A stretch of DNA of 20,740 bases, from assembly GCA_038245905.1 (NCBI GenBank), contig JBBRRY010000045.1:1-20740 (forward strand), written 5' to 3'. The notes beneath the pieces were generated by a model, which was not told the DNA's origin, searched no databases, and saw only the letters and a program-made list of their open reading frames with translations. This DNA comes from Thermoanaerobaculia bacterium. Lineage in GTDB: Bacteria; Acidobacteriota; Thermoanaerobaculia; UBA5066. Positions 1,513 to 20,740 of this stretch are shown one piece after another. Both the position numbers and the translations under genes were made by a program. Within the stretch, counting starts at the first letter, position 1, and each line of letters starts with the position of its first letter.

Positions 1513-2381
1513 GGTTCTCCTTCGCAGCTCTTTCTTCTCTCTTTTCAGTCCTTTTCCTGGCGGCCCCCGTCCGGGCTGAGGACGCGCCAGTCGTCCTTTT
1601 CCCGGCCGCGTTCTCCGTCGAGCATCGTCTCGTTCAGACCGATCCCGACGGTGACACGTTCCAGGCCGACTCGGTCACGGACACGTACGGCGGCTCGACG
1701 CTCGTCTCGGTGCGCCCGCGCGGAAGCCGCGTCATCGTGGACTTCGGGCGGCGCACGGTCACGGACGTCAGCGTCGAGAAGTCGACGTACTGGACGCTCT
1801 CCTTCTCGCAGATGGGCGACCTCTCGCGGAGGCTGGCGAGGGCCGAAGAGCGGCCGTCGGCCGCGTCGGCCGCGTTGGCCCGGGCGCCGAGCGCGGCGGG
1901 CAAGCAGGATATCCGCATCGAGGAAGTGAGTGATGGCGGGCGCGCCCTCCTCGCCGCCCCGGGCGGTCACGCCCCGCGGGTTGGCGCGCGGCGTTTTCGC
2001 GCCTATGTCGAGAACGGCCCCTCCGCCGACGTTTGGGTGGATGGAACCGTCCGCCTGTCGCCCGCGGCCCTCGACGCGCTCGAATCCTTCGAGAAAGACG
2101 CGCTCGGTTCCGCGGCCGCTCCCGGCGTTTCGCCCGCGCAGCTCGTCGGCGCGGCGCGGCGCGCGGCGGGCGGTGCCGTGCCCGTGCGCGTCAAGCGCCC
2201 GCTCTCTTCGGCGGGAGGCGTCGTCGAGGACGTCGCGACGGCCGTCACGCCGCTTCCGGCCTTCCCGCAGAAGCTTCTCATCGTCGGCGACGGCTTCCGC
2301 CGCGTGCCGAGCCCGCTCGAAGAAATGGTCGCGTTCGCCGAGGACGAAGCTTCGCGCGATTCATCGAGGCTCGTGAAGTGA
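1509..2381 (+). CDS. Exported protein, 290 aa, DUF4412-like (by eye)
   Basis: ATG at 1509 has a strong SD and overlaps the upstream stop. Signal peptide MRFSFAALSSLFSVLFLAAPVRA|EDAP. Motifs VIVDFGRRTVTDVSVEKSTYWTLSF, ADVWVD, GAVPVRV and FPQKLLIVGDGFRRV follow the DUF4412-type pattern. The ORF-track start at 1296 is an in-frame extension inside CDS1. Confidence 0.85.
   Translation: MRFSFAALSSLFSVLFLAAPVRAEDAPVVLFPAAFSVEHRLVQTDPDGDTFQADSVTDTYGGSTLVSVRPRGSRVIVDFGRRTVTDVSVEKSTYWTLSFSQMGDLSRRLARAEERPSAASAALARAPSAAGKQDIRIEEVSDGGRALLAAPGGHAPRVGARRFRAYVENGPSADVWVDGTVRLSPAALDALESFEKDALGSAAAPGVSPAQLVGAARRAAGGAVPVRVKRPLSSAGGVVEDVATAVTPLPAFPQKLLIVGDGFRRVPSPLEEMVAFAEDEASRDSSRLVK
2366..2369 (+). promoter_or_regulatory. 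Shine-Dalgarno GAGG for CDS3
   Basis: GAGG lies 8 nt upstream of the GTG at 2378, which overlaps the CDS2 stop (GTGA). Confidence 0.6.
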
Positions 2382-2443
2382 ACCGTCGCTCCCTTTTTGC
2401 CGCGCTCGCGCTCGCCCTTCTCGGGGCCGGGTTGGCGCGTGCG
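2378..2443 (+). other. N-terminal signal peptide of CDS3 (SPase I type)
   Basis: Basic n-region (MNRR), hydrophobic h-region (LFAALALALLGAGL), A-R-A cleavage motif, and no lipobox Cys. Confidence 0.85.
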
Positions 2444-5400
2444 GCCGACGCGCCGTTCGCGATCGGGCAGCCGCTTGCGCGGCGAGCGATCTTCGGCTGC
2501 GCGGGCGTCACCGTGCAAGACGGCTCGACAGTCCGGTCCGAAGGCGTTTCGTCCTATGCCGCAAAGGAAGGGCAGGCGCACGTCGCGTCGAACGGCGACA
2601 TCCTCGTGACGTCCCGCGCCACGATCCTGGGCGACGCGACCGCCGGGCCCGGACACCTCGCCACGGTCGCGCCCGACGCCGCCGTCTCCGGCCTCACGAC
2701 GCCTGCGGCCGCCGCCGTAGATTGTGCCCCCGTGGATCTCGTGAGGCTCACGGCTTCGCTCGTATCGAACGACAACGCGAAGATTCCAAAAACCGCCCTC
2801 GGCCGAAGCGCGCTCACGGGCGCCACGGGCGACGCGCTGGTGCTGGATGCGCACGACTCGGTCACGCTGCCCGCAGGAACGTTCGTGTTCTCCTCGATCG
2901 ACCTGTCGGAGCGCGCGCACGTCAAGGTCGCGGGCGACGCGCGCGTCCTCGTGACGGGCAACGTGCGCATCACCGGGAACAGCTTCCTGAATCCGGCGGG
3001 CAGAGCCTTCCGCCTGCGGCTCTTCGTCCTGGGGACTCGCGTCACGGTCGAGTCACTTTCGACGGTCGGAGCCTTCGTGATCGCGCCGTCGGCCGAGGTC
3101 TTCGTGGGATCCGAGAGCCGCGTCCTCGGGACGATCTTCGCGAAGACCGTCACCGTGCGCGAGGCGTCCGCGGTCATCCGCCTCGTGGACGACACGCCGC
3201 CCGTGCTCACGCTGATCGAGCCGACGGGGACCGGCCTGCCCTCGCTCGCGGCGGTACGCGTGCGCGGATTCGCGCGCGACCCGGAGACGGCCGTGATCTC
3301 GGCCACGGTGAACGGACGCGTCGTCTCTCTCGAGAGCGACGGGTCCTTCGACACGACGATGGACGTCACGGCCTCGAGTGAGGTTCGCCTCGACGCCGAG
3401 AACGCGATGGGCCTCGTCGCGACGGTGCGCGTGAACCTCTGCAGCGGACCGCCCACGGTCGCCGTGCTCTCGCCGGCCGACGGCTCACTCGTGGGCGCCC
3501 GGATCGGATCGGTCTCGGGGACCTTCCGCGGCGCGACCTCCATCGCGGTAAACGGACGGCCCGCCGTGCTGGGAGACGGCACGTTCCGGCTCGACGGTTT
3601 CGACTTCGGGCCCGACGGAGTCGTCGTCGTCGCCGTCGTCGCTTCGAGCTCCTGCGCGCAGTCGTCCGTCGCCAGCGTCTTTACGCTTGATACCGCGCCG
3701 CCCGTCGTCACGATCGACACCCCGGCCCCGGGCTCCGTTCTCGCGTCGTCGCCGGTCACCGTGAGCGGGACCTTCGTCGAGCCGAATCTCGCGGAGATCA
3801 CGGTGAACGGAGTGGCGGCCGTGATTTCGGGGAATCGGTTCACGGCGGTCGTCCCGATTCCGCTCGGCCCCTCGGCGCTCGTCGCCGAGGGGCGCGACCG
3901 GCTGGGCCGCGTGGGGGTCTCGGCGCGCGTCAACGTTACGCTCGACACTCAGTCCGCTTCGGTGGTCATCACGAGTCCGATTTCGGGCGCGCTCACCGCC
4001 GATGGGACGGCGACCGTAACCGGGACGGCGAGTGTTCCGGGCCTTGCCAGCGTCCGTGTCGCCGGCCGCGCGGCGGCCGTGACGGGCACCAGCTTCACGG
4101 TCTCCGGCGTTCCTCTGGCCGAGGGTGACAACCGGCTCGTGGCCGAGGCGATCGACTCCGCGAGCCGGTCCTTCTTCTCGCAACCGGTCTTCGTGACGCT
4201 GGACTCGCTGCCGCCCGACGTCGCGCTCGACGCGTCCTCGTTCCCGCTCCTGACGAGACTCTCCACCGTCAACGTGTCTGGGACGGCAGCGGATCCGCAT
4301 CTCGGCGCGGTCACGGTGAACGGCGTCGCGGCGGTGGTTTCCGCCGGGCGCTTCACGGCCGCGAACGTGCCGCTTGCCGAGGGCGCCAATTCCGTCCGCG
4401 CGCACGCCATCGACACACTCGGTCACGCGGCGGACTCGGCCTCGGCGACAGTCGACCGCGACACGCAGGCGCCGGCTGTGACGATCACGTCGCCCACGCT
4501 GAACGCACAGCTCACGGCATCGAGCGTGACGGTCTCCGGCACGGCCGTCGACCCACATCTCGCGGGCGTCACGGTGAACGGCGTCGCCGCATCGGTATCG
4601 AACGGCCGATTCACCGCGCTGCTGACGCTTTCCGAAGGCGACACGACGCTCGTCGCGAACGCTTCGGACACTCTGGGCAACGCGGCCTTGTCGGCCGGAG
4701 TTCCCGTCACCGTCGACACGATCGCCCCGATTGTCTCGATCGACTCGCCGGCCGATCCGCTCACCGGCTCGGCGTCCGTCACGGTGACGGGCACGGTCGT
4801 CGAGCCGCACCTCCTCTCCCTCACGGTGTCGGGCGTGCCGGCGTTCGTCTCGGGCGGGAGGTGGGTCGCGACGAATGTCCCGCTCGTCGAGGGCACGCAG
4901 CGCCTCACGGCCGTGGCCGTCGACACGTTCGGTCATCGCGCCGAGTCGTCGCAGGTGGAATACCGGCTCGACTCGACACCGCCCGTTCTCACGATGGACG
5001 CTCCGGCCGCGGGTTCCGCGGCGTGCCGGGCTCCGGGACCGCCCGTGACCGTGTCCGGCCGCGTGTACGGACGCGCGGGCGTCCGGCCCGTCGTCACGCT
5101 CGGCGTGCAGCCGGCCGGCAGCGCGGCGCAGTCCTTCACGGCGGCGCTCGACGCGGCGGGGACGACGTGGACGGTCCCGGCCGTCGACCTCGGCTCCGCC
5201 GACGGCGCGGCCACGCTGACCGCGACGACGTCCGACTCGCTCGGGCACGACGTGCGCGTCCTGCGCACGTTCCGCATCAAGGCCTCCTCGCCATCTCTCA
5301 GCCTCCTCCTCGACGGCAACGCGATGCCGGGCAGCGCCGTCGGCGCGGTGGCGGCTCCCGGCGAGACGCCGGTGCTGTTCGGGCGCGCTCTCTTACCCCG

Positions 5401-8400
5401 CGCGTCCGTCTCGGACGGCCCGGGCTCAGCTCCGCCGGCGCCGGTAGTCACTCTGGACGGCGCGCCCTGGGGAGGCTCGCCGATCTCGGCCGAGGGGACG
5501 CACCTTCTCGCGGCGACCGTGACCGATTGCGCGGGTCACGCGGCATTCGTCCACGCCCTCTTCACGATCGACGTGACGCCGCCGCGGCTGCTCACGTTCG
5601 TGCCCGCCGACCAGGCGACACTGGGGGTCGCGGTCGCGTCCGTGTCCGGCACGTCGGATCCCGACCTCGCCTCGGCGACAGTCAACGGCGTTGCCGCTGC
5701 TGTCTCCGGCGGCGCGTTCGCCCGGACGCCGTTCCCATGGAAGGAAGGCGCGAACGCGCTGACGATCCAGCTCGTCGACCGTGCGGGCAATGCGGCGACC
5801 TACACGCGCAGCTTCACGGTGCGGACGATCGGGCCTTCCGTCGAGATTCTCGAGTCGGGCGCGCCGCTCGGTTCCGGCGCGAAATTCTTCCGCGCCGTGA
5901 CGCCGACCGTCCGGTCGAACGATCCCGCCGCGACGGTCACGGCGACGCTCAACGGCGCGGTGTTCGTCTCCGGCACGCCGGTAAGCGTCTCGGGCGACTA
6001 CGCGCTCGCGGCTACGGCGGCGGACGCGCTCGGCCACACGGCGACCGCGAACGCGTCTTTCAAGGTGGATCTCTCGCCGGGTCCGGAGGTCGACATCGCC
6101 TCTCCAGCGGACAGGTCCGTTCTCCCGGGCCCGACCGTCGCCGTTACGGGCACGGCGAGCGCGTCCGTCACGTCCGTCACCGTGAACGGGCGCATCGCGA
6201 CGCTCGCCGGTGCGACGTGGGGGCTGCCCGACCTCGTTCTCCCGCCCGACGTGCCGTCCGAGATCGTCGCGATCGCCTTCGACGCGGCAGGGCGCACGGC
6301 GTCGGCCACCCGCCAGGTCACCGTCCGAGCCTCCGGGCCGCAAATCGCAATCCTCGAGCCGGCCGACGGGGCGAAGACGAATCGCAAGAAGATCGACGTC
6401 GCGGGCGCGGTCGTGGGCGGCCCGTCCGCGACGGCAAACGGCAGCGTCGTCGTCGCGGGTCAGACGCTCTTGCTGGATGCTCTCGGGACGTTCCGTGCGA
6501 AGGACGTGGCCCTGCAGACCGGCGCGAACACGATCACGGCTTCCGCGACGGACCCGCTGGGCCGCACCGGCACGGCTTCGGTCACCGTCACGACCGACTC
6601 GGCGGCTCCCGGTATCGCGATCGCGGCGGACGGCCAGCCTCTTGCCGAGGGCGCGAGCTTCGCGCGGCCGTTCACGGTGCGCGTGACGATCACCGACGAC
6701 ACCCTGCCGCTCCCCGTTCCGGCGATCCGCCTCAACGGCCAGGACAAGGGAGCGACGGCGGCCGTGACGGACCTCCCGATCGCGCAGGCGGGCGGATACG
6801 TCCTTTCGGTCGTGGTGCGCGACGCGGCGGGCAACGAGAGCCGAGCCGATCGGAGCTTCGTCCTCGCCTCGGGCGGCTGCGCGGTCTCGGCCCTGGATCC
6901 CGGCGACGGCGCCGTCGTGGCGGCGCCGAAGGTGACGCTCAAGGGCCGGAGCGGTGACGCGGCGTCCGTCACGGTCACGTCCGCGGGCCAGACGTTTGCC
7001 GCTCAGCTCGCCGACGGCACGTTCGCGGCGGGCGACGTGCCGCTCGCAGCGATGGGCGACAACCCTCTCTCGATCGCATGCACGGACCGCGCGGGCGCCG
7101 TCTCGACCACGAACCTGAACGTCCGGCGTCTCCAGGACGGCGCGGGCCCGGTCGTGCGCATCGTTCAACCCGCCGGCGGCGCGCGCCAGACCGGCGGCAC
7201 AGTCACCGTGAGCGGCACAGTCTCCGATCCGGCGGCCGCCGTGACCGTGAACGGCGTCAAGGCGACGGTCGCGTCCGGCGGGTTCTCGACGGGTCCGCTG
7301 CCGCTCGTCGAGGGGCCGAACGTTCTCGCAGCTCGCGCCGTGGACGCGGCGGGCCGGAGCGGGGAAGACCGCGTCGTCGTCTTCCGCGACTCGGCCGCGC
7401 CGAAGGTCGCGATCACGTCGCCGCCCGACGGTGCGCACGTCGGCAAGCCCGGTTCCGGTCCAGTCGTCGTCAACGTCTCCGGCTTCGTCGACCTCACCAG
7501 CGAACCGAACCTCGCGTCCGTCGTCGTCGCGACGAGCGCAGGCTCCGTCACCGCGACGGTCGACGCCGACACAGGCGCTTTCTATGCGGGCGGCGTGCCG
7601 CTCGCGACGACGTCGCCTGGCGTGTCGCAGAGCGTGACCGCGACCGCGACCGACACGCTCGGCCAGAGCGTCACCGCGACGGTCGGCGTGATCTACGACC
7701 CGGCGGCGCCCGCGCTCGTCCTCGGGCAGCCCGTCGACGGCACGCGCTTCAGCGAGACCTCGCCTCCGTCGTTTGCAGCCTCCGGCGACGCCTGGGCGAA
7801 GGACGGCGCAATCGTCTCGATCAACGGTGGCGGCCTCGACGGCCTCACGTGGGACGCCCCCGCCGCCGACGGGCGCCGGCACGCGAGCTTCACGCCGCAA
7901 GTCACGATGCCCGCCACCGAGGGCCCGTTCGGCGTCATCGCGCGCGTCGAGGAGCCTTCCGGCGCGTATGCGAACGACAAGCGCCTCCTCTTCAAGGACG
8001 TCACGGCGCCCACGGTCGTCGACATGCAGCCCGCCGACGGTGCGAAGCAGGTCGACGCGAACGAGATCCCGCTCGTCCTCTTCAGCGAGAACGTCCGGCC
8101 CTCGTCGCTTTCGGCAGCGGACGGTTTGACGCTGACGCGCGTTGCGACGGGCGACAAGGCTGTCGGCACGTTCACGATCGCGGGCAGCGCGGTCGCGTTC
8201 GCGCCGGGCGCCGCAATGGTGCGCGGCGAGGCATACAAGTTCCGCGCGGGCGCGGGGGTCACGGACCTCGTCGGGCACCCTCTCGCGGCCGCGAAGGAAG
8301 TCCAGTTCACGGTCGCGGCCGTCGGAACCTCGGCGCCGCCCGTGCTCGACGCCCTGCCTCCGGTCGTCTGCGCGACGCAGCTCGTCGTCGCGGGCGCCGC

Positions 8401-14400: not shown

Positions 14401-17400
14401 GGCGATCATCGACGTCTGGGACATCGGGCGGGCGAACGGCGGACCCAGCAGCGACGGGAGCTATCCGCCCTCCGTGGATTCGGTAGATCCCCGACTGCTC
14501 TTCACGCTCAATGCGCCATGGGACACGAACCACCTCGGGCTCGACGAGGACACGGGGCTCCTCTATACCTGGGGCTCGCGCGCGGACGGGAAGACCGGCG
14601 GCTTCGTCCTCGCGACACGCGATCCGCAGTTTGTGTTCAGCGGCCTCTTCCGTCCCGTTGGCGAGACGCGGGACCCGATTGCCGGCGGCCCGCCCCTTCC
14701 CAGCGCCCAGCGAACGATCGACAAACTCACACCGCTCATACCGCTTGGCGTCGCCATGCGCGTCCTGCCGAAGGATGAAGCGGACCCGGAGAAGGCGAAG
14801 ACCGACGAGCGGGCGGCGACCGCCGCTTTCAAGCTCCGCGTCGCGCTGCCTGGCGTGCTGAAGGAGAAGCTCTACGCGAGGGTCCAGTCGCTCCGCGCGC
14901 TGCCGGACGAGCGCCTGCTCGCGCGCGAGAACGTCGGGCCTTTCGTCGCCGCACCGGGCGGCGACGGCTGGCCGGAGCGGGACGTGTCGATCACGCTCCG
15001 CCGGCTCGTGCCCGCGGGAGCACCGACGGCGGAGAAGCTCAAGCCCCCCTACAACCTGTACGAGTCGGACGAGGTCATCCTCCTAATCGCCGACCCGCGC
15101 GCGCGGGCCGACTACTGGAAGGGGAAGCAGACGCTCGCCCCGCCGGCGACGGCCGACGAAAACACGCAATGCCGGCGCTGTGGCCGACCGTCCTACCTGC
15201 CCGTCAAGGCGGACGACCCGACGCTCAAGGTGAAGGAGCTGCTCGCGGGCGGCCCGTGGATCCGGGCGTTCCTCGCCGAGCCGCCGGGCGGTGACGCCGA
15301 CACGCGCGCGGCGCTCGATTACTTTGACTCGACCGAGGACAACTACCCGAGACCTGCCGGTGCCGTCCAGTCGCTCGGCTTCGCCGACGAGGTCCCATCG
15401 CCCGTGCAGATCGCGCTCGCGGAGCCCGCGCTCAACGCGGCGTCATGGAGCGCCGAGGCCGGAGCGAGCGTTTCGCTCGTGTCGGGCGAGGCATTGCTCG
15501 CGGCGACGGACCACGCCGTGGAGGGCCGCGGCGTCGGGTTCGTGTTCGACCGCACGTACCGCTCGGGCGTCCTCGGCTATGGTTCGCTTGGAGCCGCGGG
15601 CTGGGGCTCGTCGATGTTCGCGCGCCTGCGCCTCCTTCCGGCCACGAAGGAGGTCGAGCTCCACGACGGCAGCGGCCACGTCTTCAGATTCTCGCCGCCG
15701 GTGGAAGGCTCGTGCGCACTGCCGGCGCTGCCGGGGCCGACCCGCGACGTACCGACGCACGAACTGGACGGCGGCTGGTGCGTCCCCAGAGGCCTTTATC
15801 TGAAGCTGGACGTTGTCGGCGAGGGCGATTCGTACCGCCTCCTGGGGCGCAACCACGACACGATGCTTTTCGACTCGTCGGGCCGCCTCGTGCAGCTCTC
15901 CGACCGCATTCGCCATGGCGCGTCCGACCCGAAGAAGCAGGGCAACACGCTGCAGCTGTTCTACGACGGCGCGGGCTTCCTCATGGGCGCAGAGGACGAG
16001 ATGGGGCGGTCCTACCGATTCACGTACGACAAGGAGCCGCTCCTCGCGGGCGGCGACCCGAACCCGAAGTACGCTCTTCTGAAGACCGTCGAGGACTTCG
16101 CGACGCCCCCGCGCGTCGTGACGTTCCGGTTCGACGACGAGCGGAGACTCACGGAAGTCCAGCTGCCCGCCGTCACGAACCCAGACGCCGAGTTCAAGCA
16201 CGACGCGCCCATCGTCCGATACAAGTACGAGTACGCGAAGACGCTGGCGTCCACCGCACCCGCCAACGGACCGGACTTCTCGAAGCTGAAGCTCACGAGC
16301 TTCCTCCTGCCCGACGCAGACGCCCCACGAATCGCCTTCGACTACGCTCCAGCGACGGGGCGTGTCACCACGCTCACGCTGCCGCCCAGCGCCGTGGGCG
16401 GCACCGGCACGGCGTGGACCCTCCGTTACGTGGATCCGTCGTCCGACGCGGGTCCGACCAAGACCGTGTCCGTCGTGGCGCCCTGGAGTTTCAGCCTCGA
16501 CTACGCCCTTGATGCCGGCCGCATCACGACCCTGACCGAGAAGGTCGAGACGGTGGGCCCGGCCGACGGGGACATTCCTGACGTGGCCGTTGGGCCGCCC
16601 GTACAGACGCTCACGACGAACTACTCTTATCTCGAGGACGGACGTCTCGATTTCGTCGAGTGGCCCGACAAACACCTCACGCGGCAGAAGTACCCGGACG
16701 GCGGGGTGCGGCTCGAGCTCGCCAACGTCGTAGAGGCGACGGCCGAGCCGGGCGGGGCGCCGACGGGCCCGGCAAAGCACGGTGTTCCCGCCACGAAGGT
16801 CACGTCCTTCGTTGACAACATTGCGCAGACGATTCTCGATCCGCTCTTGCGGTCGACGACCTCCGCCGTCGCGACTGCGAACGGCTTGGCAAATCCCGCT
16901 TTCGTGGGCAATGACGACCCCGGCAAGCCCCAACCCATCCAGCCCACGGTCGGCGGGACCGCGTCATACGACCCCTACGGCCGCCTTGCGACGTTCCAGG
17001 GCAACGGCACGAACAGCACGCAAGCAGGGACGAAGTTCGGTAAGGACGCGCAGGGGCGCGAAAACGCGGGCTTCGCGACGGAGATCGCGCGGGGCGAGGT
17101 TAAGGAAACGCTCGAGTACGACACGGACGGCACGGGCCCACGTGGCAACGTGACGCACCGGACGACGAGTTTCAAGACGGAGAGCAAGTTCGATTACGAC
17201 GAGTGGGACCGCACGATCCGCGAAGAGACGGGTCTCAGCAAAGGCGATCTCGAGCAGGTGACGGACGCCATCGTCACGCGCGGCTACGACGCTTCCGGCC
17301 ACCTCGCGGTCGAGCGGCGGAAGCAGGCGGGGGTCGGAACGGGAACAGTCGAGACGCGCTACACCTACAACGACCGCGAGCAGCTCCTCAGCGTCACGGT

Positions 17401-20400
17401 CGACAACCTCGCGTCGGAGAGCCCCGGAGCCGCCGCCGGCCTGAAGGGAACGACGGCGTACTCCTACGACTCGTCGGGCCGCGTCTCGGAGGTCAGGTCA
17501 CCTCAGGGCGTGATCACGCACTACGAGTACGACTCGGCCGGGCGCGTCAAGAGCGAGCGCGTGGGCCCCACGGGGGGAATTCGTAGTCGCGGCTACGACG
17601 CGATGGGGCGGCTCGTCTGGAGGACCGACGGCGACGACGGCTTCTGGCGCGGGCGGTACGACGCCTGGGGCCGGCTCTTCCAGGAGGACCTGCCCACGGG
17701 CGCCTCGCTCGAACGTGAGTTCGACGCCGCGGGCGGCGTCCTCCGCGAGACGCTCTTCACCGGCCTTCCGGGCCTCGTCGCCTCGACGAAGATCACCGAG
17801 ACGAAGAAGCACGTCACGAGCTTCGGCGCGGTCGACCTCGTCGACGAGCTGCTCACGACCGGACCCGAGACGCACCGGATCACGAAGAAGACGTACGACG
17901 GCTCCGGCCGGCTCGTGACGGTGACGAGCGGACCGACCGATGCGATCCAGCGGACGGATCTCACGGCGGCATACGACGCCGCGGGCCGCTCGACGAGCCA
18001 GACCGACGCCGGCCAGAACGTGACGGAGTTCAGGTACACGAATGCAGCGCCCTGGCCCACGCGGATGACATTCACGGAGGCGGTCCCCGGAAAGGCTCCG
18101 GTGCAAACCACGTATTCGGAGTACGGCCGCGACGCGTTTGGGCGCGTAGTGGGCGAGAAGCGGTATGGGGGCAGCAGCGTCCTTGTCTCGGAGACCATGA
18201 CGAAGTTCGACCAGAGCGGCAACGTCCGGTCGGTCAAGACTGTCATCGGCAACGAGACCACTTTCACGTACGACGGCGCCGGCCGCCTCCTGACCGAGGC
18301 GAGGCCGACGAACGGCACGACCCAGTACGGCTACGACCTCGACGGGCGCGTGAGGCACCGCGTGTCGGGCAGCATCAGCGCGCGCCCGAACAAGACGGAC
18401 TACGGTTACGACACGTCGGGGCGCCTCGACAAGGTCGACCGTCCCGACTCGACGAGCGAGTCCTTCAAGTACAACGGCGACGACACCGTGCAGACCTGGA
18501 CCACGCGCTCAGGCATCGTCGTCACGAACCGGTACGACGCCGCCAACCGGCTCCTCTCGCGCACGCCGGCAAGGTCCTCGAACTCGAAGGCGCCCGCCGT
18601 CGACGGCGGCGACAGGTACGCCTACGACGAAGGCTCGCGCCTGAAGTCCGTCGACAGATGGGACGAGCCCGCGGGGGCAGCTGCGTTCCTGTCGAACCTT
18701 TCCGCGCGCGCCGCGTTCGCACAGTACGACGCGGCGGGCCGTCCCGGCGAGGAAAGGATCGGGGCGCGCTCACCGTTGACGCGCGTCTACGACACGTGGT
18801 CTCGCGAGGCTGACGTTCGCGTTCCCGACGGCGTTGGCCGCCAGGCCGCGAGCGCGTTCACGGGCTACCACCGCGAGTTCGACTCGCTCGACCGTCTCTT
18901 GAGCCTCTCGGCAGTCGGCGATACCGCGCTCGGCGCGCGGTGGGATTGGGGCGGCACGTCGCGTCTCTACGGCGTCACGACATCGAGTTCCCTCGGCACG
19001 GCGCACCGCTACAGCTTCCTCGGTTCCTACGGTCCGCAGCCCGGCGGCTCCGTCACGACTCCGTGGCAGCTCGGCGTGGTGTCGGTCGGCTCCTCTGCGG
19101 CGGGCGATGCGGCCGTTGATGCTCCCGCCTCGGTTTGGGGCCAGATGGCCTACGGCTACAAGACGGGCGACGCAACCAAGCGTGGGCGCGCCGTCATGGG
19201 AGCCGCGCCAGGCCGGGTGGGCGTCTTCGCGAACCAGGGCTGGCGCTTCACGTCCGACGACGCGCTGCGCCTGACTTCGGCCGAGGCGGGCAGCGGCAGC
19301 ATTGACGGCTCGGATCCGGCCGTCATAAGCGAGAAGTTCACGGCCGTCTACGACATCGGCGACGAGGTGAAGGTCCTCTCGCGCGAGAAGTCGGCTGTCC
19401 GGAGCGCCACGTTCGTCCCGGGCGTCGAAGGCCGCATCGAATCTCGCAACGGCATCGCGTTCGATCACGACCCCGAGGGCCGCCGTCTCGCGGACGATCG
19501 CTACACCTACGCCTGGGGCTGGCGGGGTGAGCTCCTGTCGGTCAGCGTCAAGGATTGCTGGCCCGCCGAAAACGGCGAGTCCCATGCTCCCGACTGCCCC
19601 TCGGGCTTCACGCGCCCGCGTTTTGCCGGCCACAAGGTCCTCTACGAATACGATGCCCTGGGCAGCCTCCTCGCCCGTGAGGAACGCGGCGAGCCGGCGT
19701 CGCCGGGCGACGAGGCCACGCGGCCCTTCTACGAAAGGCGCGAATACCTTTGGGACGGTACTCGCCTGCTGGCCGAGGCGGGCCGCGCCGCCGACGGCGG
19801 GCTCCTGTGGAGGAAGTCCTACGTCCCCGGAGCCAGCGGCCTCGACGACGCTGTCCAGCAGCGTGTCGAGACCTACGACGTCACGGGAGCCGAAGCCGCG
19901 CCTCCGAAGCTCTATGCCTTCCTGCGCGACGATCAGAACACCGTCCTCGGTCTCGTGGAAGAGCGCGACGGAGCCGACCCTAAGAACCCGCCCATTCCCG
20001 TCCGGTACCACTACAGCCCGTACGGGGAAGCCCACGCCGAGACGGCGACCGAGCTCGTGAGGGTGACGTTCGAGGATTCACTCCACAGCGTCACCAGTCC
20101 GGACGGCACGACGGCCAGCCAGACGACGGCCGCTGATGCGCGAGATGGGGGCCTCAGGATCTTCCTCACCCTCCCGGTCGACCCGTCGGTCCTGGCCACG
20201 GCCCTGACGGTCGAGAAGAGGAACGCGGACGGCACGTGGGGAGCGCTGACTGCCGCCGAGCTCGCTCTCGGACAACATCCCGGCCAGCCGGACGAGATCG
20301 AAGTCATCGCGGTAAACGGCTGGAAGCAGGGCGCGACTTACCGCGTGAGGATCAACGGCCTCAAGGACACGCTCGGCAGAACCGCGACGTCGTCGTCGCT

Positions 20401-20740
20401 CGTTACGTGGGACGTCCCGGCCAGCGACGCTGTCCTCCTCGACCGGAACTTTCCGCTGGTCTACGAATGCGCGGTGGCGTCAGCAGACAGCGTCAGCGGT
20501 GCGTTCCCCGGCGGCCAGAACCTCCTCTTCCAGGGCCTCTGGACCGACCCCGTCACCGGCATCGCCTACGCCAGAAACCGCTGGTACGACGCGAGGAATG
20601 TGGGATGGCTCTCCCAAGACCCTCTCGGCGACCGCGACTCCGTCAACCTCTACGGATTCGTCGGAGCAAGGCCGCACGAGAAGACCGATCCGTTGGGACT
20701 GGGAATCCTCGATGACACATTCGGCTGGGTGAAGGAGAAG
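2378..20740 (+). CDS. Giant (>6121 aa, 3'-truncated) signal-peptide-bearing, multi-Ig-domain Rhs/YD-repeat protein; putative polymorphic toxin/adhesin
   Basis: Frame +2 from GTG 2378 has no stop to the window end in my manual translation. Consistently, the ORF track lists no terminated frame +2 ORF after 2378. It begins MNRRSLFAALALALLGAGLARA and ends WYDARNVGWLSQDPLGDRDSVNLYGFVGARPHEKTDPLGL|GILDDTFGWVKEK. It has many YDxxGR repeats. Confidence 0.96.
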   Translation, partial: MNRRSLFAALALALLGAGLARAADAPFAIGQPLARRAIFGCAGVTVQDGSTVRSEGVSSYAAKEGQAHVASNGDILVTSRATILGDATAGPGHLATVAPDAAVSGLTTPAAAAVDCAPVDLVRLTASLVSNDNAKIPKTALGRSALTGATGDALVLDAHDSVTLPAGTFVFSSIDLSERAHVKVAGDARVLVTGNVRITGNSFLNPAGRAFRLRLFVLGTRVTVESLSTVGAFVIAPSAEVFVGSESRVLGTIFAKTVTVREASAVIRLVDDTPPVLTLIEPTGTGLPSLAAVRVRGFARDPETAVISATVNGRVVSLESDGSFDTTMDVTASSEVRLDAENAMGLVATVRVNLCSGPPTVAVLSPADGSLVGARIGSVSGTFRGATSIAVNGRPAVLGDGTFRLDGFDFGPDGVVVVAVVASSSCAQSSVASVFTLDTAPPVVTIDTPAPGSVLASSPVTVSGTFVEPNLAEITVNGVAAVISGNRFTAVVPIPLGPSALVAEGRDRLGRVGVSARVNVTLDTQSASVVITSPISGALTADGTATVTGTASVPGLASVRVAGRAAAVTGTSFTVSGVPLAEGDNRLVAEAIDSASRSFFSQPVFVTLDSLPPDVALDASSFPLLTRLSTVNVSGTAADPHLGAVTVNGVAAVVSAGRFTAANVPLAEGANSVRAHAIDTLGHAADSASATVDRDTQAPAVTITSPTLNAQLTASSVTVSGTAVDPHLAGVTVNGVAASVSNGRFTALLTLSEGDTTLVANASDTLGNAALSAGVPVTVDTIAPIVSIDSPADPLTGSASVTVTGTVVEPHLLSLTVSGVPAFVSGGRWVATNVPLVEGTQRLTAVAVDTFGHRAESSQVEYRLDSTPPVLTMDAPAAGSAACRAPGPPVTVSGRVYGRAGVRPVVTLGVQPAGSAAQSFTAALDAAGTTWTVPAVDLGSADGAATLTATTSDSLGHDVRVLRTFRIKASSPSLSLLLDGNAMPGSAVGAVAAPGETPVLFGRALLPRASVSDGPGSAPPAPVVTLDGAPWGGSPISAEGTHLLAATVTDCAGHAAFVHALFTIDVTPPRLLTFVPADQATLGVAVASVSGTSDPDLASATVNGVAAAVSGGAFARTPFPWKEGANALTIQLVDRAGNAATYTRSFTVRTIGPSVEILESGAPLGSGAKFFRAVTPTVRSNDPAATVTATLNGAVFVSGTPVSVSGDYALAATAADALGHTATANASFKVDLSPGPEVDIASPADRSVLPGPTVAVTGTASASVTSVTVNGRIATLAGATWGLPDLVLPPDVPSEIVAIAFDAAGRTASATRQVTVRASGPQIAILEPADGAKTNRKKIDVAGAVVGGPSATANGSVVVAGQTLLLDALGTFRAKDVALQTGANTITASATDPLGRTGTASVTVTTDSAAPGIAIAADGQPLAEGASFARPFTVRVTITDDTLPLPVPAIRLNGQDKGATAAVTDLPIAQAGGYVLSVVVRDAAGNESRADRSFVLASGGCAVSALDPGDGAVVAAPKVTLKGRSGDAASVTVTSAGQTFAAQLADGTFAAGDVPLAAMGDNPLSIACTDRAGAVSTTNLNVRRLQDGAGPVVRIVQPAGGARQTGGTVTVSGTVSDPAAAVTVNGVKATVASGGFSTGPLPLVEGPNVLAARAVDAAGRSGEDRVVVFRDSAAPKVAITSPPDGAHVGKPGSGPVVVNVSGFVDLTSEPNLASVVVATSAGSVTATVDADTGAFYAGGVPLATTSPGVSQSVTATATDTLGQSVTATVGVIYDPAAPALVLGQPVDGTRFSETSPPSFAASGDAWAKDGAIVSINGGGLDGLTWDAPAADGRRHASFTPQVTMPATEGPFGVIARVEEPSGAYANDKRLLFKDVTAPTVVDMQPADGAKQVDANEIPLVLFSENVRPSSLSAADGLTLTRVATGDKAVGTFTIAGSAVAFAPGAAMVRGEAYKFRAGAGVTDLVGHPLAAAKEVQFTVAAVGTSAPPVLDALPPVVCATQLVVAGAAVPNASVRVRDAALSVSGNADAAGRFAVTIPLSGNGWHAVHAAVIDSGGTAGPEAAALFRVDCSAPAVVGATFDRGSGKIAVVFAEAMRASTVTVGGPGSAITVSKADDATNAPQAATLTLSTDGATATLDLGNSPSIWWLNASVRLSVGPPATDAAGNVMTAPFSTVFFAGGGGDLSGGFLSGAALDEESGRPLAGADARLYASGAALPGSVPAVEVTPATASTVTDGRGRFSLTGDIAAGRYALVLSRTGYTRAVRRLALEPAVGAVPFGSRLTPLAAQAPSLLAAAAGGSFAGPAGSSLTADFASNALVAATSLGVRLTPLSGQGLPEPLPLGWTPLAAAELRLVPNGAGDDALPEGAGTPFTPGGVTLTLALPAGILTADLYAARYDVVAGAWLALPLPVFVAGSSSTPDRARVTPTGPGTVALIAPDADPATRPAVMPVSLDAPLVGVALPSTVPTLSATIALDPPIVSPIGRATARVLAKASDGVTPFPSGLAVQGYLDEKLILSGGAGELYEAPFSADLVLYHPPLSAGDLGGAAPGAVGALSFRISPSPRAAQVLLDTGYENVRLFPFTDQLERGQVLGPAGGSVSTADGVELFVPESGLAQKTVVSARKLTAAELAALPPVSGYATAAAVRVSFSGASLARAASLRLNAPTGLPVDAADDPRYVLAVLVDQPDDGRGAFANAVSRVTLLPAAGAVPARLVAAPEVSGSPLPFPGVAGEGVFLFLHANAPIGFVTGRVAAPNGAGIAGSRVTAAGLGTANLSVPGGPYAVPAPAGSPTLTALHPVLGLSGTGQVPSLAKGQVGMLDLVLSPTPPQIRSLQPANGATDQPVGSTVAIVFSAALDPASVTAATLSVSLADSAGASTGLVFSGAIALSPDRTTVVFTPTRPLPPGRRIAARFVGGVRDAAGTAYGGPLPVDWSFTTSTQFVTGGSVHPEKIRLLVPVNGVARVIGDPGALPAALSGTTPWSAFADVDGPVACPSVTTVPADSAGGFTLNAGCPPSSTVTFASRVYIHILDPTGTEAATFRLGLFTTPDGKGFVAVPGDETVFTTAEGVEVTTPAAAFDTPTLVKVTKQPLDSLAVALNPGFEMGAVLNVDFDGTAKETLRLRIPVVTASPVGGLVFAGTPFETPWGRKLKILDVGRLVDDGKGGKLISTAEADQPDDPALVAGGASSVRTGGRKAQALPKKLLQTIAAEFTARATAGFIFGATLELAAITGHVEPAIVGTTFFILYNALADAFIYQAIAHNWDGRYVLPSTGTAFTVVKRELATGWILGQKDYGPVAPSPGRFVNLGELEPGSSDPPRLVDAAPFPVIRFKAPAVSTGQETNLRLRLEMEANTTDQALVTLRSVSGLAFADGTVVSLYNLTQGTSVKATVSGGSFTAGPVAGKAGDDLLALVLASDVETDGLTDLTFEFSRPLQSVADPRTLVALTDVETGAPVAMQAFLEASSTRLRVQLYGALGRGRDYKVELSSIFSDNGVAYHASDPTVFTFRTRRAQQDPIGSTLGPGLSLGDTDSARDVLKFGNLLLVGSGNGRLLAVDASDPAKPVLFARLTPSAGDQVRAFATDGHNRLFYNARFGSTWAIKAVRVEDVWNASLANCPSSAGDPGWLAALPCFLPVDGGVKAAFALGSSLGLTGSEYLSLMGGLGTGMPAGLEALAANDVVGPYPAEEFFQRIAGSGTYPVGPPSSPDPGVDVTLTVSTAGHVFDRGVAPCGEPSYDRKQRVTVDNLTTGQSWSIDVANPSNSGTTASVRIHARRRDVIQVRYNKTAIGYVAIVGSGVTVVDLNRFYDSPLPSGSANQINRGECQRRLGTYEGADATFGPCSGASPTSLSNTPALAVVPGHAESASIDVFSVLTHFGAGNLVSDANAPGALQAVEMRCLRDAVPSVPPAAAYRAAAIALGTTWMDVGAVAGSSGKFTKPNPAPPPTELNGDLLFYSLGPAGVAVFDVTFRPTMNLIGRFWRKDHSVYRLATDRAGKRLFAGGQDKDGKAIIDVWDIGRANGGPSSDGSYPPSVDSVDPRLLFTLNAPWDTNHLGLDEDTGLLYTWGSRADGKTGGFVLATRDPQFVFSGLFRPVGETRDPIAGGPPLPSAQRTIDKLTPLIPLGVAMRVLPKDEADPEKAKTDERAATAAFKLRVALPGVLKEKLYARVQSLRALPDERLLARENVGPFVAAPGGDGWPERDVSITLRRLVPAGAPTAEKLKPPYNLYESDEVILLIADPRARADYWKGKQTLAPPATADENTQCRRCGRPSYLPVKADDPTLKVKELLAGGPWIRAFLAEPPGGDADTRAALDYFDSTEDNYPRPAGAVQSLGFADEVPSPVQIALAEPALNAASWSAEAGASVSLVSGEALLAATDHAVEGRGVGFVFDRTYRSGVLGYGSLGAAGWGSSMFARLRLLPATKEVELHDGSGHVFRFSPPVEGSCALPALPGPTRDVPTHELDGGWCVPRGLYLKLDVVGEGDSYRLLGRNHDTMLFDSSGRLVQLSDRIRHGASDPKKQGNTLQLFYDGAGFLMGAEDEMGRSYRFTYDKEPLLAGGDPNPKYALLKTVEDFATPPRVVTFRFDDERRLTEVQLPAVTNPDAEFKHDAPIVRYKYEYAKTLASTAPANGPDFSKLKLTSFLLPDADAPRIAFDYAPATGRVTTLTLPPSAVGGTGTAWTLRYVDPSSDAGPTKTVSVVAPWSFSLDYALDAGRITTLTEKVETVGPADGDIPDVAVGPPVQTLTTNYSYLEDGRLDFVEWPDKHLTRQKYPDGGVRLELANVVEATAEPGGAPTGPAKHGVPATKVTSFVDNIAQTILDPLLRSTTSAVATANGLANPAFVGNDDPGKPQPIQPTVGGTASYDPYGRLATFQGNGTNSTQAGTKFGKDAQGRENAGFATEIARGEVKETLEYDTDGTGPRGNVTHRTTSFKTESKFDYDEWDRTIREETGLSKGDLEQVTDAIVTRGYDASGHLAVERRKQAGVGTGTVETRYTYNDREQLLSVTVDNLASESPGAAAGLKGTTAYSYDSSGRVSEVRSPQGVITHYEYDSAGRVKSERVGPTGGIRSRGYDAMGRLVWRTDGDDGFWRGRYDAWGRLFQEDLPTGASLEREFDAAGGVLRETLFTGLPGLVASTKITETKKHVTSFGAVDLVDELLTTGPETHRITKKTYDGSGRLVTVTSGPTDAIQRTDLTAAYDAAGRSTSQTDAGQNVTEFRYTNAAPWPTRMTFTEAVPGKAPVQTTYSEYGRDAFGRVVGEKRYGGSSVLVSETMTKFDQSGNVRSVKTVIGNETTFTYDGAGRLLTEARPTNGTTQYGYDLDGRVRHRVSGSISARPNKTDYGYDTSGRLDKVDRPDSTSESFKYNGDDTVQTWTTRSGIVVTNRYDAANRLLSRTPARSSNSKAPAVDGGDRYAYDEGSRLKSVDRWDEPAGAAAFLSNLSARAAFAQYDAAGRPGEERIGARSPLTRVYDTWSREADVRVPDGVGRQAASAFTGYHREFDSLDRLLSLSAVGDTALGARWDWGGTSRLYGVTTSSSLGTAHRYSFLGSYGPQPGGSVTTPWQLGVVSVGSSAAGDAAVDAPASVWGQMAYGYKTGDATKRGRAVMGAAPGRVGVFANQGWRFTSDDALRLTSAEAGSGSIDGSDPAVISEKFTAVYDIGDEVKVLSREKSAVRSATFVPGVEGRIESRNGIAFDHDPEGRRLADDRYTYAWGWRGELLSVSVKDCWPAENGESHAPDCPSGFTRPRFAGHKVLYEYDALGSLLAREERGEPASPGDEATRPFYERREYLWDGTRLLAEAGRAADGGLLWRKSYVPGASGLDDAVQQRVETYDVTGAEAAPPKLYAFLRDDQNTVLGLVEERDGADPKNPPIPVRYHYSPYGEAHAETATELVRVTFEDSLHSVTSPDGTTASQTTAADARDGGLRIFLTLPVDPSVLATALTVEKRNADGTWGALTAAELALGQHPGQPDEIEVIAVNGWKQGATYRVRINGLKDTLGRTATSSSLVTWDVPASDAVLLDRNFPLVYECAVASADSVSGAFPGGQNLLFQGLWTDPVTGIAYARNRWYDARNVGWLSQDPLGDRDSVNLYGFVGARPHEKTDPLGLGILDDTFGWVKEK
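2477..3187 (+). other. Beta-solenoid domain, ice-binding (DUF3494)/DUF7305-like
   Basis: Motifs AIFGCAGVTV, VASNGDILV..ATILGDATAGPG, VTLPAGTFVFSSIDL, VLVTGNVRITG, LRLFVLG and FVIAPSAEVFVG..VLGTIFAKTVTV occur in the order typical of this fold. Confidence 0.65.
3191..7996 (+). repeat. Tandem array of about 18 bacterial Ig-like domains (about 85-105 aa each)
   Basis: Units open with D-T/S-x-x-P-x-V-x-I-x-x-P and contain VSG...VTVNG...F...VPLxEGxNxLxAxAxDxxG. Unit starts at 3689, 3944, 4202, 4460, 4715 and 4970 give a 255/258-nt period. Confidence 0.9.
7997..12910 (+). other. Mixed domain block: about four SbsA-type Ig (Big_5), two to three carboxypeptidase-regulatory-like and three ZU5-like domains
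   Basis: Big_5-like at about 7997 (DVTAPTVVDMQPADGAKQVD..VLFSENV), 8582, 10856 (PPQIRSLQPANGATDQPVGSTVAIVFSAALDPASV..VVFTPTRPL..VRDAAG..WSFTT) and 12326. CarboxypepD_reg-like at about 8936 (LSGAALDEESGRPLAGA..TDGRGRFSL..GRYALVLSRTGY), 10615 and possibly 12065. ZU5-like at about 9260, 10145 (LGPAGGSVSTADGVELFVPESGL) and 11530 (GVEVTTPAAAF). Confidence 0.7.
12977..14620 (+). other. LVIVD/YVTN-like beta-propeller with large loop insertions
   Basis: Blade motifs: ARDVLKFGNLLLVGSGNGRLLAVDASDPAKPVLFARL, VRAFATDGHNRLFY, GYVAIVGSGVTVVDL, LLFYSLGPAGVAVFDVT, VYRLATDRAGKRLFAGG..IIDVWDI and HLGLDEDTGLLYTWG. Confidence 0.7.
15461..15691 (+). other. DUF6531-like Rhs shell entry domain
   Basis: GASVSLVSGEALLAATDHAVEGRGVGFVFDRTYRSGVLGYGSLGAAGWGSSMFARL...VELHDGSGHVFRF matches the VxxxxGE..TD..G..FxRTYRS..GxxGxGW pattern. 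Confidence 0.8.
15850..20029 (+). repeat. YD/RHS repeat array (cocoon shell)
   Basis: Many units, e.g. FDSSGRLVQLSD, YDPYGRL, YDEWDRTIRE, YDSSGRVSEV, YEYDSAGRV, YDAMGRLV, YDAWGRL, YDGAGRLL, YDLDGRV, YDTSGRL, YDAANRLL and YEYDALG. Confidence 0.93.
20003..20701 (+). other. RHS repeat-associated core (aspartyl autoprotease), split by an inserted domain
   Basis: RYHYSPYGE, then a 163-aa insert, then NLLFQGLWTDPVTGIAYARNRWYD...WLSQDPLG...NLYGFVGARPHEKTDPLGL. The PxxxxDPxGL terminus is at 20672-20701. Confidence 0.93.
20702..20740 (+). other. Start of the hypervariable C-terminal cargo (putative toxin); identity not determinable
   Basis: GILDDTFGWVKEK follows DPLGL directly; the window then ends. 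Confidence 0.8.

Follow-up and report, generated by a model that had tools for sequence, protein, structure and literature searches.

The stretch of DNA analysed here, called the window below, is the whole of contig C45 (JBBRRY010000045.1; 20,740 nucleotides) of a Thermoanaerobaculia genome (G000), a metagenome bin of 3.80 Mb in 113 contigs that is 96.4% complete and has a GC content of about 70%. Three genes lie on its forward strand (Table 1): the 3' end of a giant gene (u1), a small gene (u2) and a giant Rhs gene, the subject of this report, which probably encodes an exported polymorphic toxin. Frame +2 is open from position 2033 to 20740, where it runs off the 3' end of the contig (6236 codons), and from the GTG at 2378 it gives 6121 codons with zero stops and a product of 628 kDa. 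Given the base composition of the window, the chance of 6121 stop-free codons is about 1e-48. GC was highest at codon position 3 in 30 of 30 segments of 600 nt (range 0.84-0.93). The start was set at 2378 because the GTG shares bases with the TGA of u2 (GTGA), because the third-position GC signal shifts from frame 3 to frame 2 at this point, and because a blastp alignment with a relative of 6417 aa (P0002) opens at residue 1 in both proteins. That alignment is one high-scoring segment pair (residues 1-6113 against 1-6127; 66.8% identity), which makes a chimera unlikely, and the protein is also colinear with four further giants by blastp. The giant open reading frame (ORF) is a genuine gene. 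An earlier note made from the letters of this DNA had reported an uninterrupted frame of at least 6121 codons, and translation, coding periodicity and the colinearity with P0002 confirmed it; of the two flaws that the note had warned of, an in-frame stop was absent from all 6121 codons and a chimera is unlikely in the light of P0002. The frame can be read for just 13 codons past the Rhs cleavage motif and the toxin itself lies outside the window.

Table 1. Features of the giant Rhs locus, followed by those of the related cassette on contig C19. Nucleotide positions refer to the window unless another contig is named; residues are counted from GTG 2378.
Feature	Position (nt)	Residues (aa)	Strand	Remarks
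u1, 3' end of a giant beta-sandwich surface protein	1..1512	503 codons	+	frame open at 5' end; periodicity of GC at third codon positions
u2	1509..2381	290 aa	+	signal-like N-terminus; ATG 1509 overlaps u1 stop (ATGA); TGA overlaps GTG (GTGA)
Giant Rhs gene	2378..20740		+	5' end complete; 3' end cut by contig end
Sec-type signal peptide, signal peptidase I (SPI)-like	2378..2446	~1-23	+	A-R-A before mature end; no lipobox Cys
Ice-binding-protein-like right-handed beta-helix	2453..3187	26-270	+	DUF7305 / pAdhesive_15
15 tandem immunoglobulin (Ig)-like repeats	3188..7684	271-1769	+	Glucodextran_B / Big_13 / Big_3_3 type
Second stalk part	7997..12907	1874-3510	+	Pfam; family-less long beta-rich stretches between named domains
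Big_5 in stalk		1874-1978, ~2084-2176, 2827-2938, 3424-3510	+	Pfam
Big_6 in stalk		1997-2062	+	Pfam
CarboxypepD_reg in stalk		2190-2271	+	Pfam
Propeller-like all-beta module	12977..14650	3534-4091	+	AlphaFold2 (AF2) model, Foldseek; family-specific
Alpha/beta linker module	14651..15463	4092-4362	+	invariant CxxC (C4265, C4268) in conserved QCRRC
DUF6531	15464..15691	4363-4438	+	Pfam PF20148, E 3e-9, 37.5 bits vs cut-off 24.1
YD/RHS-repeat shell	15692..20053	4439-5892	+	Pfam, NCBIfam, PDB sequence matches
Ig-like (Big_5-type) insertion	20054..20419	5893-6014	+	between last YD repeats and core end
Rhs-associated core end	20513..20701	6046-6108	+	TIGR03696; motif PHEKTDPLGL, DPLGL at 20687-20701
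Recombination-junction stretch	20606..20740		+	last 135 nt = L031 1-135; 20702-20740 = first 13 toxin codons
C19 orphan cassette	G000 C19 72099-73070 (L002:751-1722:-)		-	34-aa core-end handle + 250-aa C-terminus
C19 candidate immunity ORF	L002:172-747:-		-	next ORF after orphan cassette

From its N-terminus the protein consists of a signal peptide, a beta-helix, about 20 Ig-like domains, a propeller-like module, DUF6531, a YD/Rhs shell and an Rhs core end (Pfam was scanned in tiles, with hits listed at E ≤ 0.1). The signal peptide forms the sole strong hydropathy peak in the protein (1.78) and its cleavage site is predicted from a reading of the sequence. Tat (twin-arginine) export was considered for the string NRRSLF and rejected: the closest homologue has no RR, and the size of the protein would also argue against it. 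The beta-helix was matched by DUF7305 at 27.5 bits (cut-off 27) and, under its cut-off, by pAdhesive_15 (E 0.0015), described as a "putative ice-binding-like adhesive domain". An AF2 model of this region from 9 sequences reached a predicted local distance difference test (pLDDT) of 84.4 and a predicted template modelling score (pTM) of 0.76, and its top matches in the PDB by Foldseek were all ice-binding proteins (E 7e-5; template modelling (TM) score by target 0.46-0.60). On this model residues 26-270 would adopt the DUF3494-type fold of ice-binding proteins, a right-handed beta-helix flanked by an alpha-helix, a likeness of fold only. In two relatives, G100 (L009:4391-6715) and G192 (L011:5775-7331), the N-terminal ice-binding-like beta-helix is doubled in tandem.

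The tandem Ig-like repeats were matched by Pfam Glucodextran_B (E 3e-98 over 10 stretches). A further copy of the same repeat lies at residues 1985-2064, and a hidden Markov model that we built from the repeat itself found 16 domains in all. Residues 2270-4441 had no match in a PDB sequence search. Within that stretch, an AF2 model of residues 3401-4560 (20 sequences; pLDDT 71.7, pTM 0.70) is all-beta over residues 3534-4091, and a Foldseek search of the PDB was led by beta-propellers (the Sevenless/ROS1 ectodomains, tandem WD40 and BT4663; probability 0.8-1.0), with TM-scores of just 0.08-0.20, as the query holds several domains. Pfam added a weak LVIVD repeat (E 0.002). The module is propeller-like on this model, not a proven propeller. 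The region that contains it (residues 3420-4441) is rare: at E ≤ 1e-3 it drew matches from 163 of 1.84 billion representative proteins, the long ones belonging to the family described below. In the linker that follows, the two cysteines of the CxxC correspond to invariant columns C865 and C868 of an alignment of 20 sequences (A1).

The DUF6531 domain we take to be a plug at the N-terminal mouth of the shell. The shell itself was recognized by RHS_repeat (PF05593; E 5.7e-23), by TIGR01643 (E 1.4e-26) and by a partial RHS_core match, and its sequence matches in the PDB are the Rhs cores of type VI secretion system (T6SS) effectors (8qja, 8qjb, 8h8a, 8uy4, 7q97 and 8cp6; E 2e-16 to 5e-7); residues 4440-5030 read as degenerate YD repeats. 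The Ig-like insertion ahead of the core end had no Pfam hit in the window's own copy. Five of five short relatives compared (P0216, P0218, P0219, P0221, P0223) have an equivalent stretch with 33-35% identity to it (E about 1e-11 to 1e-12), and in both of the relatives scanned Pfam names this stretch Big_5 (P0221, E 2e-8; P0219, E 2e-7). TIGR03696 recognized the core end (E 4e-13; 49.6 bits, cut-off 32.5) up to position 76 of the 76 in the model. It carries the aspartyl-protease pattern RWYD...SQDPLGD...PHEKTDPLGL; the R..D..DPxG part of it recurs in 19 of 20 relatives, and directly after the DPxG the likeness among the relatives ends. With YD repeats and a core end preceded by the R and D residues, the protein belongs by sequence to the Rhs/YD proteins, and cleavage is predicted.

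Much of what the earlier note had read from the letters held up against these searches. About 4360 aa do precede the shell, with DUF6531 at residues 4363-4438 and the RHS repeats after it, and the signal peptide that it had proposed is borne out by both hydropathy and sequence. The long adhesin-like stalk is made up of 16 copies of one repeat together with Big_5, Big_6 and CarboxypepD_reg domains. The propeller appeared as a propeller-like module before the shell, at a pLDDT of 71.7 and low TM-scores, and the Rhs shell with its DPxG autoprotease motif was found in the form PxxxxDPLGL. The note's statement that PAAR, VgrG and a transmembrane prePAAR region are missing agrees with the tiled Pfam scan, which gave no PAAR, VgrG or prePAAR segment, and with the hydropathy profile, in which the N-terminal segment is the single hydrophobic one. 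Its "binding tip" was right as to structure, since AF2, Foldseek and Pfam all point to an N-terminal beta-helix; the role of tip is in doubt. The beta-helix may instead be the base, by analogy, because comparable systems anchor at the N-terminus in the available text of two papers (PMC3482391; PMC13018210), and the propeller-like module beside the capsule may then be the part that faces the target.

A search with residues 3400-6121 returned 20 proteins, between 3373 and 6678 aa in length, which align over 98-100% of the query at 34-61% identity; three of them are named as Thermoanaerobaculia bacterium. They are deposited as "RHS repeat-associated protein", "polymorphic toxin-type HINT domain-containing protein" or "Ig-like domain-containing protein". 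Residues 3401-4400 matched 70 of 400 other genomes of the class at E ≤ 1e-3 (a count that includes a weak match in G175, an unpublished genome that bears on no other result here), 30 of them strongly (E < 1e-50), and 6 of 18 genomes of the same genus; the distribution is patchy and accessory, as judged by sequence matches. Two copies of the family are split over frames (G212 C4, ~1018278-1021325; G328, joined ~22441-22467) and may be pseudogenes or contain assembly indels. A core end could be placed in each of the 20 relatives, with 250-454 aa beyond it in 19, and these C-termini differ sharply: a blastp hit at E ≤ 1e-3 was shared by 14 of 210 pairs. Identity between P0004 and P0005 is 92.5% in the final 600 residues of the body and 24.7% in the C-terminus; for P0002 and P0003 the figures are 85.2% and 20.8%. 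Pfam families found after the cleavage motif were PT-TG, PT-HINT, Endonuclea_NS_2, LHH and DUF2380, and the divergent C-termini include HNH-type, NS-endonuclease and PT-HINT domains. In each of the relatives that have sequence past the toxin stop (4 of 4: G260, G328, G209 and G100), a small ORF of lower GC begins on the same strand at that stop or a few nt away from it, and these ORFs are candidate immunity genes. A conserved body, variable C-termini and small downstream genes are what the earlier note had expected of homologues; the contrary pattern that it had also named, an invariant non-toxic C-terminus and no immunity gene, is not what was seen: the relatives vary and carry small ORFs downstream.

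Orphan cassettes, in which a core-end fragment is joined to a new C-terminus, follow the main gene in two relatives (two cassettes in G260, one in G209). In this genome a cassette of the same kind lies at one end of contig C19, the only other Rhs-like sequence inside the bin. Its 34-aa core-end fragment is 88% identical, with homology from GWLSQDP, and is followed by a C-terminus of 250 aa and an ORF. The first 132 aa of this C-terminus are 55% identical to the C-terminus of P0006. Neither it nor its downstream ORF belongs to a Pfam or NCBIfam family, and the C-terminus has a weak Atlas lead to restriction-endonuclease-fold toxins, as a lead only. The 121 nt that precede the cassette contain a hairpin with a T-run. 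After toxin-immunity cassettes there is a GC-rich, non-coding-looking element of about 0.46 kb (C19 71495-71031; L031, a contig described below, 1158-1621), seen also in G260 (joined 25267-25632 and 32674-32734) and G328 (25061-25136), that is, twice in G260 and once in G000. It is 88-94% identical between copies, against about 82% for the flanking genes, and had no Rfam match; the element may be the 3' boundary for cassette exchange. Rfam gave no family at threshold in the window, in L031 or at the end of C19. Small ORFs near the cassettes resemble, by eye, type II toxin-antitoxin genes, namely a Phd/YefM-RelE-like pair and a MazF/PemK-like ORF (C19 reverse strand, ~4176-4694 nt from the end; G260 joined 25660-26010).

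The missing C-terminus was approached through the last nucleotides of the window. When named genomes were scanned, two contigs came up, both from a single Thermoanaerobaculia metagenome-assembled genome. The first (L029) carries another giant gene of the family, which also stops at the core end. The second (L031) is the start of a 181-kb contig whose positions 1-135 are identical to window positions 20606-20740 and whose positions 1-141 are identical to the last 141 nt of L029. Further along, L031 encodes a C-terminus of 258 aa that contains an HNH domain (PF01844; E 8e-11) and, overlapping it, an 88-aa ORF that has an Imm33-like match (E 6.6e-4), and from 1158 to 10135 it is 82-94% identical to C19 of this genome. 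Because L031 starts with the end of the window and then runs on syntenic with C19, contigs C45 and C19 are read from the sequence as neighbours in this genome, with a gap between them that would contain no less than the primary toxin and the immunity gene. A complex prediction for the HNH region of L031 and the Imm33-like ORF gave a score of 0.01, which is no answer and counts neither way. Within the bin no other contig end shared a word of at least 21 nt with the end of the window, and a search for near-identical fragments bridging the end of the window gave none, the best of 50 short relatives being 66% identical.

A further line of evidence came from run X1, which may be the source sample and is therefore not independent as to presence. 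A contig of 8770 nt at depth 50 agrees with the window at every position of 19741-20629. Pieces of depth 65 and 28 come in at 20600-20664 (running sums 116 and 146), and a contig of 1155 nt at depth 140 covers 20635-20740 and extends 1049 nt beyond. Because these depths add up, they suggest, with the proviso that contig depth is no copy number, that three gene bodies feed a common cassette roughly as long as the HNH C-terminus and the Imm33-like ORF together. From the 135-nt identity, the synteny and the X1 depths it is probable that the HNH cassette and the Imm33-like ORF belong to this gene. Assemblies also break near the core end or C-terminus in L029 and G192:C26 (checked directly) and apparently in G112:C38, G144:C1 and G108:C13 (an estimate based on match coordinates). 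Fragmentation at the core-end repeat seems to be systematic and to part the toxin from its gene, and the practical lesson is that assemblies break at this repeat, so these toxins are lost from bins.

Upstream of the giant gene, u1 and u2 are, from the overlaps of their stop and start codons, translationally coupled to it. The ORF that precedes the giant gene in G328, G260 and G212 shows 65-69% identity to the part of u1 in the window. In G260 this protein reaches about 5,200 aa (L034:8717-19999 plus L003:3-4427), with six CarboxypepD_reg domains and SpaA, SdrD_B, Big_5 and Big_7 domains; it also contains internal repeats of about 340-510 aa. Among six fetched relative loci, u1 was strong at three, gave weaker or partial repeat matches at two and was without a match at one, and u2 had a homologue at all six (33-78% identity), directly upstream of the giant gene in the layouts examined. 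No Pfam or NCBIfam family was found for u2, which has an Atlas lead to DUF4412 (score 0.92), again as a lead only. In relatives a tetratricopeptide repeat (TPR)/transglutaminase lipoprotein is among the neighbours of the giant gene. The earlier note's description of the gene as "self-contained" does not hold, given the two coupled genes upstream, of which u2 is present at six of six and u1 strongly at three of six relative loci. Both probably act in display or outer-membrane passage. Searches of the genome, which is 96.4% complete, gave no match to the families TssC, VgrG (Phage_GPD) or PAAR (PAAR_motif). Two Hcp-family (PF05638) ORFs are present on the minus strand of contig C5 (32139-32525 and 33323-33685), both with signal peptides and both adjoining what by eye appear to be housekeeping genes, and the genome also holds two secretin genes.

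Taken together, we consider it probable, at roughly three chances in four, that the giant ORF encodes a Sec-exported, T6SS-independent, giant Rhs-type polymorphic toxin. The cleavable N-terminal signal peptide would direct the protein to Sec. The mature protein would be a long fibre of a beta-helix and about 20 Ig-like or prealbumin-like domains, perhaps 80-90 nm in length and presumably displayed at the surface. The fibre would bear the propeller-like and CxxC module, the DUF6531 plug and the YD shell, as read from the Pfam, NCBIfam, AF2 and PDB matches. Because of the solved structures of Rhs proteins, Tc toxins and bacterial teneurin-like proteins (TLPs), we infer that the aspartyl protease (R...D...DPLGL, ending at residue 6108) frees a C-terminal toxin inside the shell. 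That toxin would be exchangeable after the DPxG, with spare cassettes recombining via the GWLSQDP...DPxGL handle seen in relatives and on C19. The toxin of this copy would most likely be the 258-aa HNH DNase of L031, followed by the 88-aa Imm33-like immunity ORF. The immunity protein would shield the producer and its kin, and non-immune neighbours would be killed on contact, as the analogy with WapA, TLPs and CdiA suggests.

Several points weigh against this interpretation. The toxin and immunity genes are absent from the window and the bin, L031 136-1157 being without a match in G000. What ties the HNH cassette to this gene is an identity of 135 nt together with contig depths, and depth is no copy number; the Imm33-like match is sub-threshold in Pfam (19.9 bits against 27). 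The propeller call comes from a medium-confidence model with low TM-scores. The C-termini of 250-454 aa exceed the roughly 15 kDa of TLPs, so full encapsulation is uncertain. No outer-membrane route was identified, the two secretin genes being unable to tell the candidate routes apart, and either end of the fibre may be the anchored one, with the other facing the target. The domains, the protease motif, the C-terminal polymorphism across the family, the orphan cassettes and the lack of T6SS parts are observations; export, display, cleavage, toxicity, contact dependence and the roles of u1 and u2 are inferred.

A purely or mainly adhesive role, that of a cell-cell recognition fibre like the metazoan teneurins in which the shell is structural and the C-terminus no weapon, would suit the roughly 70% of residues that lie in adhesin-type domains, the ice-binding-like adhesive domain at the N-terminus and the second giant beta-sandwich protein (u1) in the same operon, and the available text on TLPs argues for cooperation as well as competition (PMC13018210). 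We nevertheless regard it as unlikely and prefer the toxin because the autoprotease motif is unbroken here and recurs in 19 of 20 relatives, the C-termini are hypervariable with nuclease families among them, and orphan cassettes and small downstream ORFs are present, all of which are hallmarks of toxin-immunity conflict. Nor do we give better odds to a released Tc-like or soluble toxin aimed at eukaryotic grazers or prey, in which the propeller would dock or gate as in TcB. The propeller-like module does stand beside a YD cocoon in a way that recalls TcB-TcC, and the protein has a signal peptide and no recognised anchor motif, but SpvB and TcdB_toxin_mid were not found in the tiled Pfam scan (E ≤ 0.1), there is no TcA-like neighbour, and both the pairing of C-terminal DNase families with small immunity-like ORFs, typical of interbacterial systems, and the arrays of orphan cassettes point elsewhere.

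The exported polymorphic toxin is also preferred to two readings that we find harder to credit. The closest solved relatives by sequence are T6SS Rhs cores and the genome has two Hcp-family ORFs, but it is very unlikely that the protein is, like the majority of Rhs effectors studied so far, cargo of a T6SS or of another contractile or dedicated machine: it carries a signal peptide and no PAAR, VgrG or prePAAR segment, TssC, VgrG and PAAR were not found in a genome of 96.4% completeness, the Hcp-like ORFs have signal peptides and, by eye, housekeeping neighbours, and a 628-kDa fibre would be an implausible load. Least probable of all is an assembly artefact or a dead gene, whether through a chimeric join in the contig or as a pseudogene whose frame stays open owing to high GC. 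The sequence does come from a metagenome bin, the contig ends within the gene and the relatives in G212 and G328 have frame breaks, but 6113 residues are colinear with the independent 6417-aa P0002, the periodicity holds in 30 of 30 segments with no stop in 6121 codons, and the 8770-nt contig of X1 (a run that may be the source sample) has 0 differences over 19741-20629.

Beyond the toxin as such, a fuller picture can be drawn tentatively. In it u1, the Rhs protein (about 6,400 aa) and u2 would build a fibre of about 100 nm, the propeller/CxxC module, ahead of the plug, would bind the receptor or trigger release of the enclosed toxin, and divergent bodies in co-resident species would share an identical toxin-immunity cassette and with it mutual immunity, the whole amounting to an undescribed Sec-dependent contact weapon of diderm Acidobacteria. 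Judged as one joint proposal that takes in the fibre, the trigger module and a 100%-identical cassette shared in one sediment community, this is doubtful, if less so than any of the alternatives above.

Most knowledge of Rhs toxins comes from Proteobacterial T6SS effectors and from Tc toxins. Here the same capsule and autoprotease stand on a predicted Sec-exported fibre of 4,360 residues in uncultured Thermoanaerobaculia (Acidobacteriota). The family offers a way into the question of Rhs capsule delivery in the absence of a contractile machine, and it widens the bacterial background of the teneurin superfold. The X1 contig graph, in which three gene bodies of the same sample seem to lead into one cassette, would show cassette sharing in a natural community directly. 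The novelty of the gene was rated too high in the earlier note: Sec-dependent Rhs/YD toxins with N-terminal adhesion modules are already described in the available text of PMC3482391 and PMC13018210, and relatives are already deposited. In our literature search no paper was found on Thermoanaerobaculia and Rhs or describing this giant family, a search that covered the TLP paper without its supplementary lists, and a preprint on giant genes (10.1101/2023.11.21.568195) mentions Rhs solely as a structural comparison.

Compared with the T6SS Rhs effectors of known structure (8qja, 8qjb-d, 8h8a, 8uy4, 7q97 and 8cp6), the giant protein has the same YD shell, core end, DUF6531-type plug and DPxGL, but it has a signal peptide and is three to four times longer. 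It has no N-terminal PAAR, VgrG or prePAAR, and the genome has no detected TssC, VgrG or PAAR. In the Tc toxin TcB-TcC a YD cocoon lies next to a beta-propeller, and an aspartyl autoprotease releases the encapsulated C-terminal toxin. The propeller of TcB-TcC is inside the shell sequence, whereas the propeller-like module here comes before the plug. The tiled Pfam scan gave no SpvB or TcdB_mid, and the giant gene upstream has only Ig and prealbumin-type domains and is no TcA. CdiA/CdiB systems consist of a long surface filament with a C-terminal toxin and immunity pair, and they have orphan C-terminus/immunity cassettes with a short handle. CdiA is in this respect a functional analogue of the giant Rhs protein; in the tiled Pfam scan there were no hits to the two-partner secretion domain (TPS; Haemagg_act) or to filamentous haemagglutinin (FHA) repeats, and no CdiB-like gene lies beside the giant gene.

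The Sec-dependent RHS class, of which WapA of Bacillus subtilis is an example, is also among the closest known systems. In the available text of Zhang et al. (2012; PMC3482391), signal-peptide ("T2SS", type II secretion system) RHS toxins with adhesion modules are described and Tox-HNH is listed with Imm33. The giant protein resembles these, as far as that text goes, in its signal peptide, in modules for adhesion or anchoring at the N-terminus, in its RHS stalk or shell and, judged from its relatives, in exchangeable nucleases; the Tox-HNH/Imm33 pairing, probable for this copy, and standalone recombination cassettes are further likenesses. The giant protein differs from that class in its diderm host, in the roughly 4360 aa that precede the shell, including the beta-helix and the propeller/CxxC module, and in having no cell-wall-binding domain.

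A close likeness in general plan is to the TLPs (Nat Commun 2026, PMC13018210; preprint 10.1101/2025.11.11.687626), which the available text describes as YD-shell toxins with a Sec signal, bacterial Ig-like (BIG) and transthyretin (TTR) N-termini, polymorphic C-termini and downstream immunity genes, with Acidobacteriota included. The giant protein is like them in its Sec signal, Ig (BIG) and transthyretin/CarboxypepD-like modules, plug and YD shell, and PxxxxDPxG autoprotease motif, and also, judged from its relatives, in a polymorphic C-terminal toxin, a candidate immunity gene just downstream and a patchy accessory spread in Acidobacteriota. Membership of the TLPs was considered and rejected: these proteins have the order FN-plug, six-bladed NHL propeller, YD shell, while Pfam NHL and TEN_NHL were absent from the giant protein at E ≤ 0.1 and its propeller-like module is N-terminal to the plug, with no NHL propeller between plug and shell. 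By the figures in that text it is also about three times the size of BiTLP (2237 aa), and the C-termini of its family, at 250-454 aa, compare with about 15 kDa in TLPs; the Big_5 insertion before the core end and the two conserved partner genes, one giant and one small, set it further apart. The string "Thermoanaerobacul" is absent from the main text of PMC13018210, whose supplementary genome lists could still include a member of the family. The kind of protein, a Sec-dependent Rhs polymorphic toxin, is thus known, and what sets this family apart is the propeller/CxxC module before the plug, the ice-binding-like beta-helix, the Big_5 insertion, the C-termini of 250-454 aa, the size and the partner genes.

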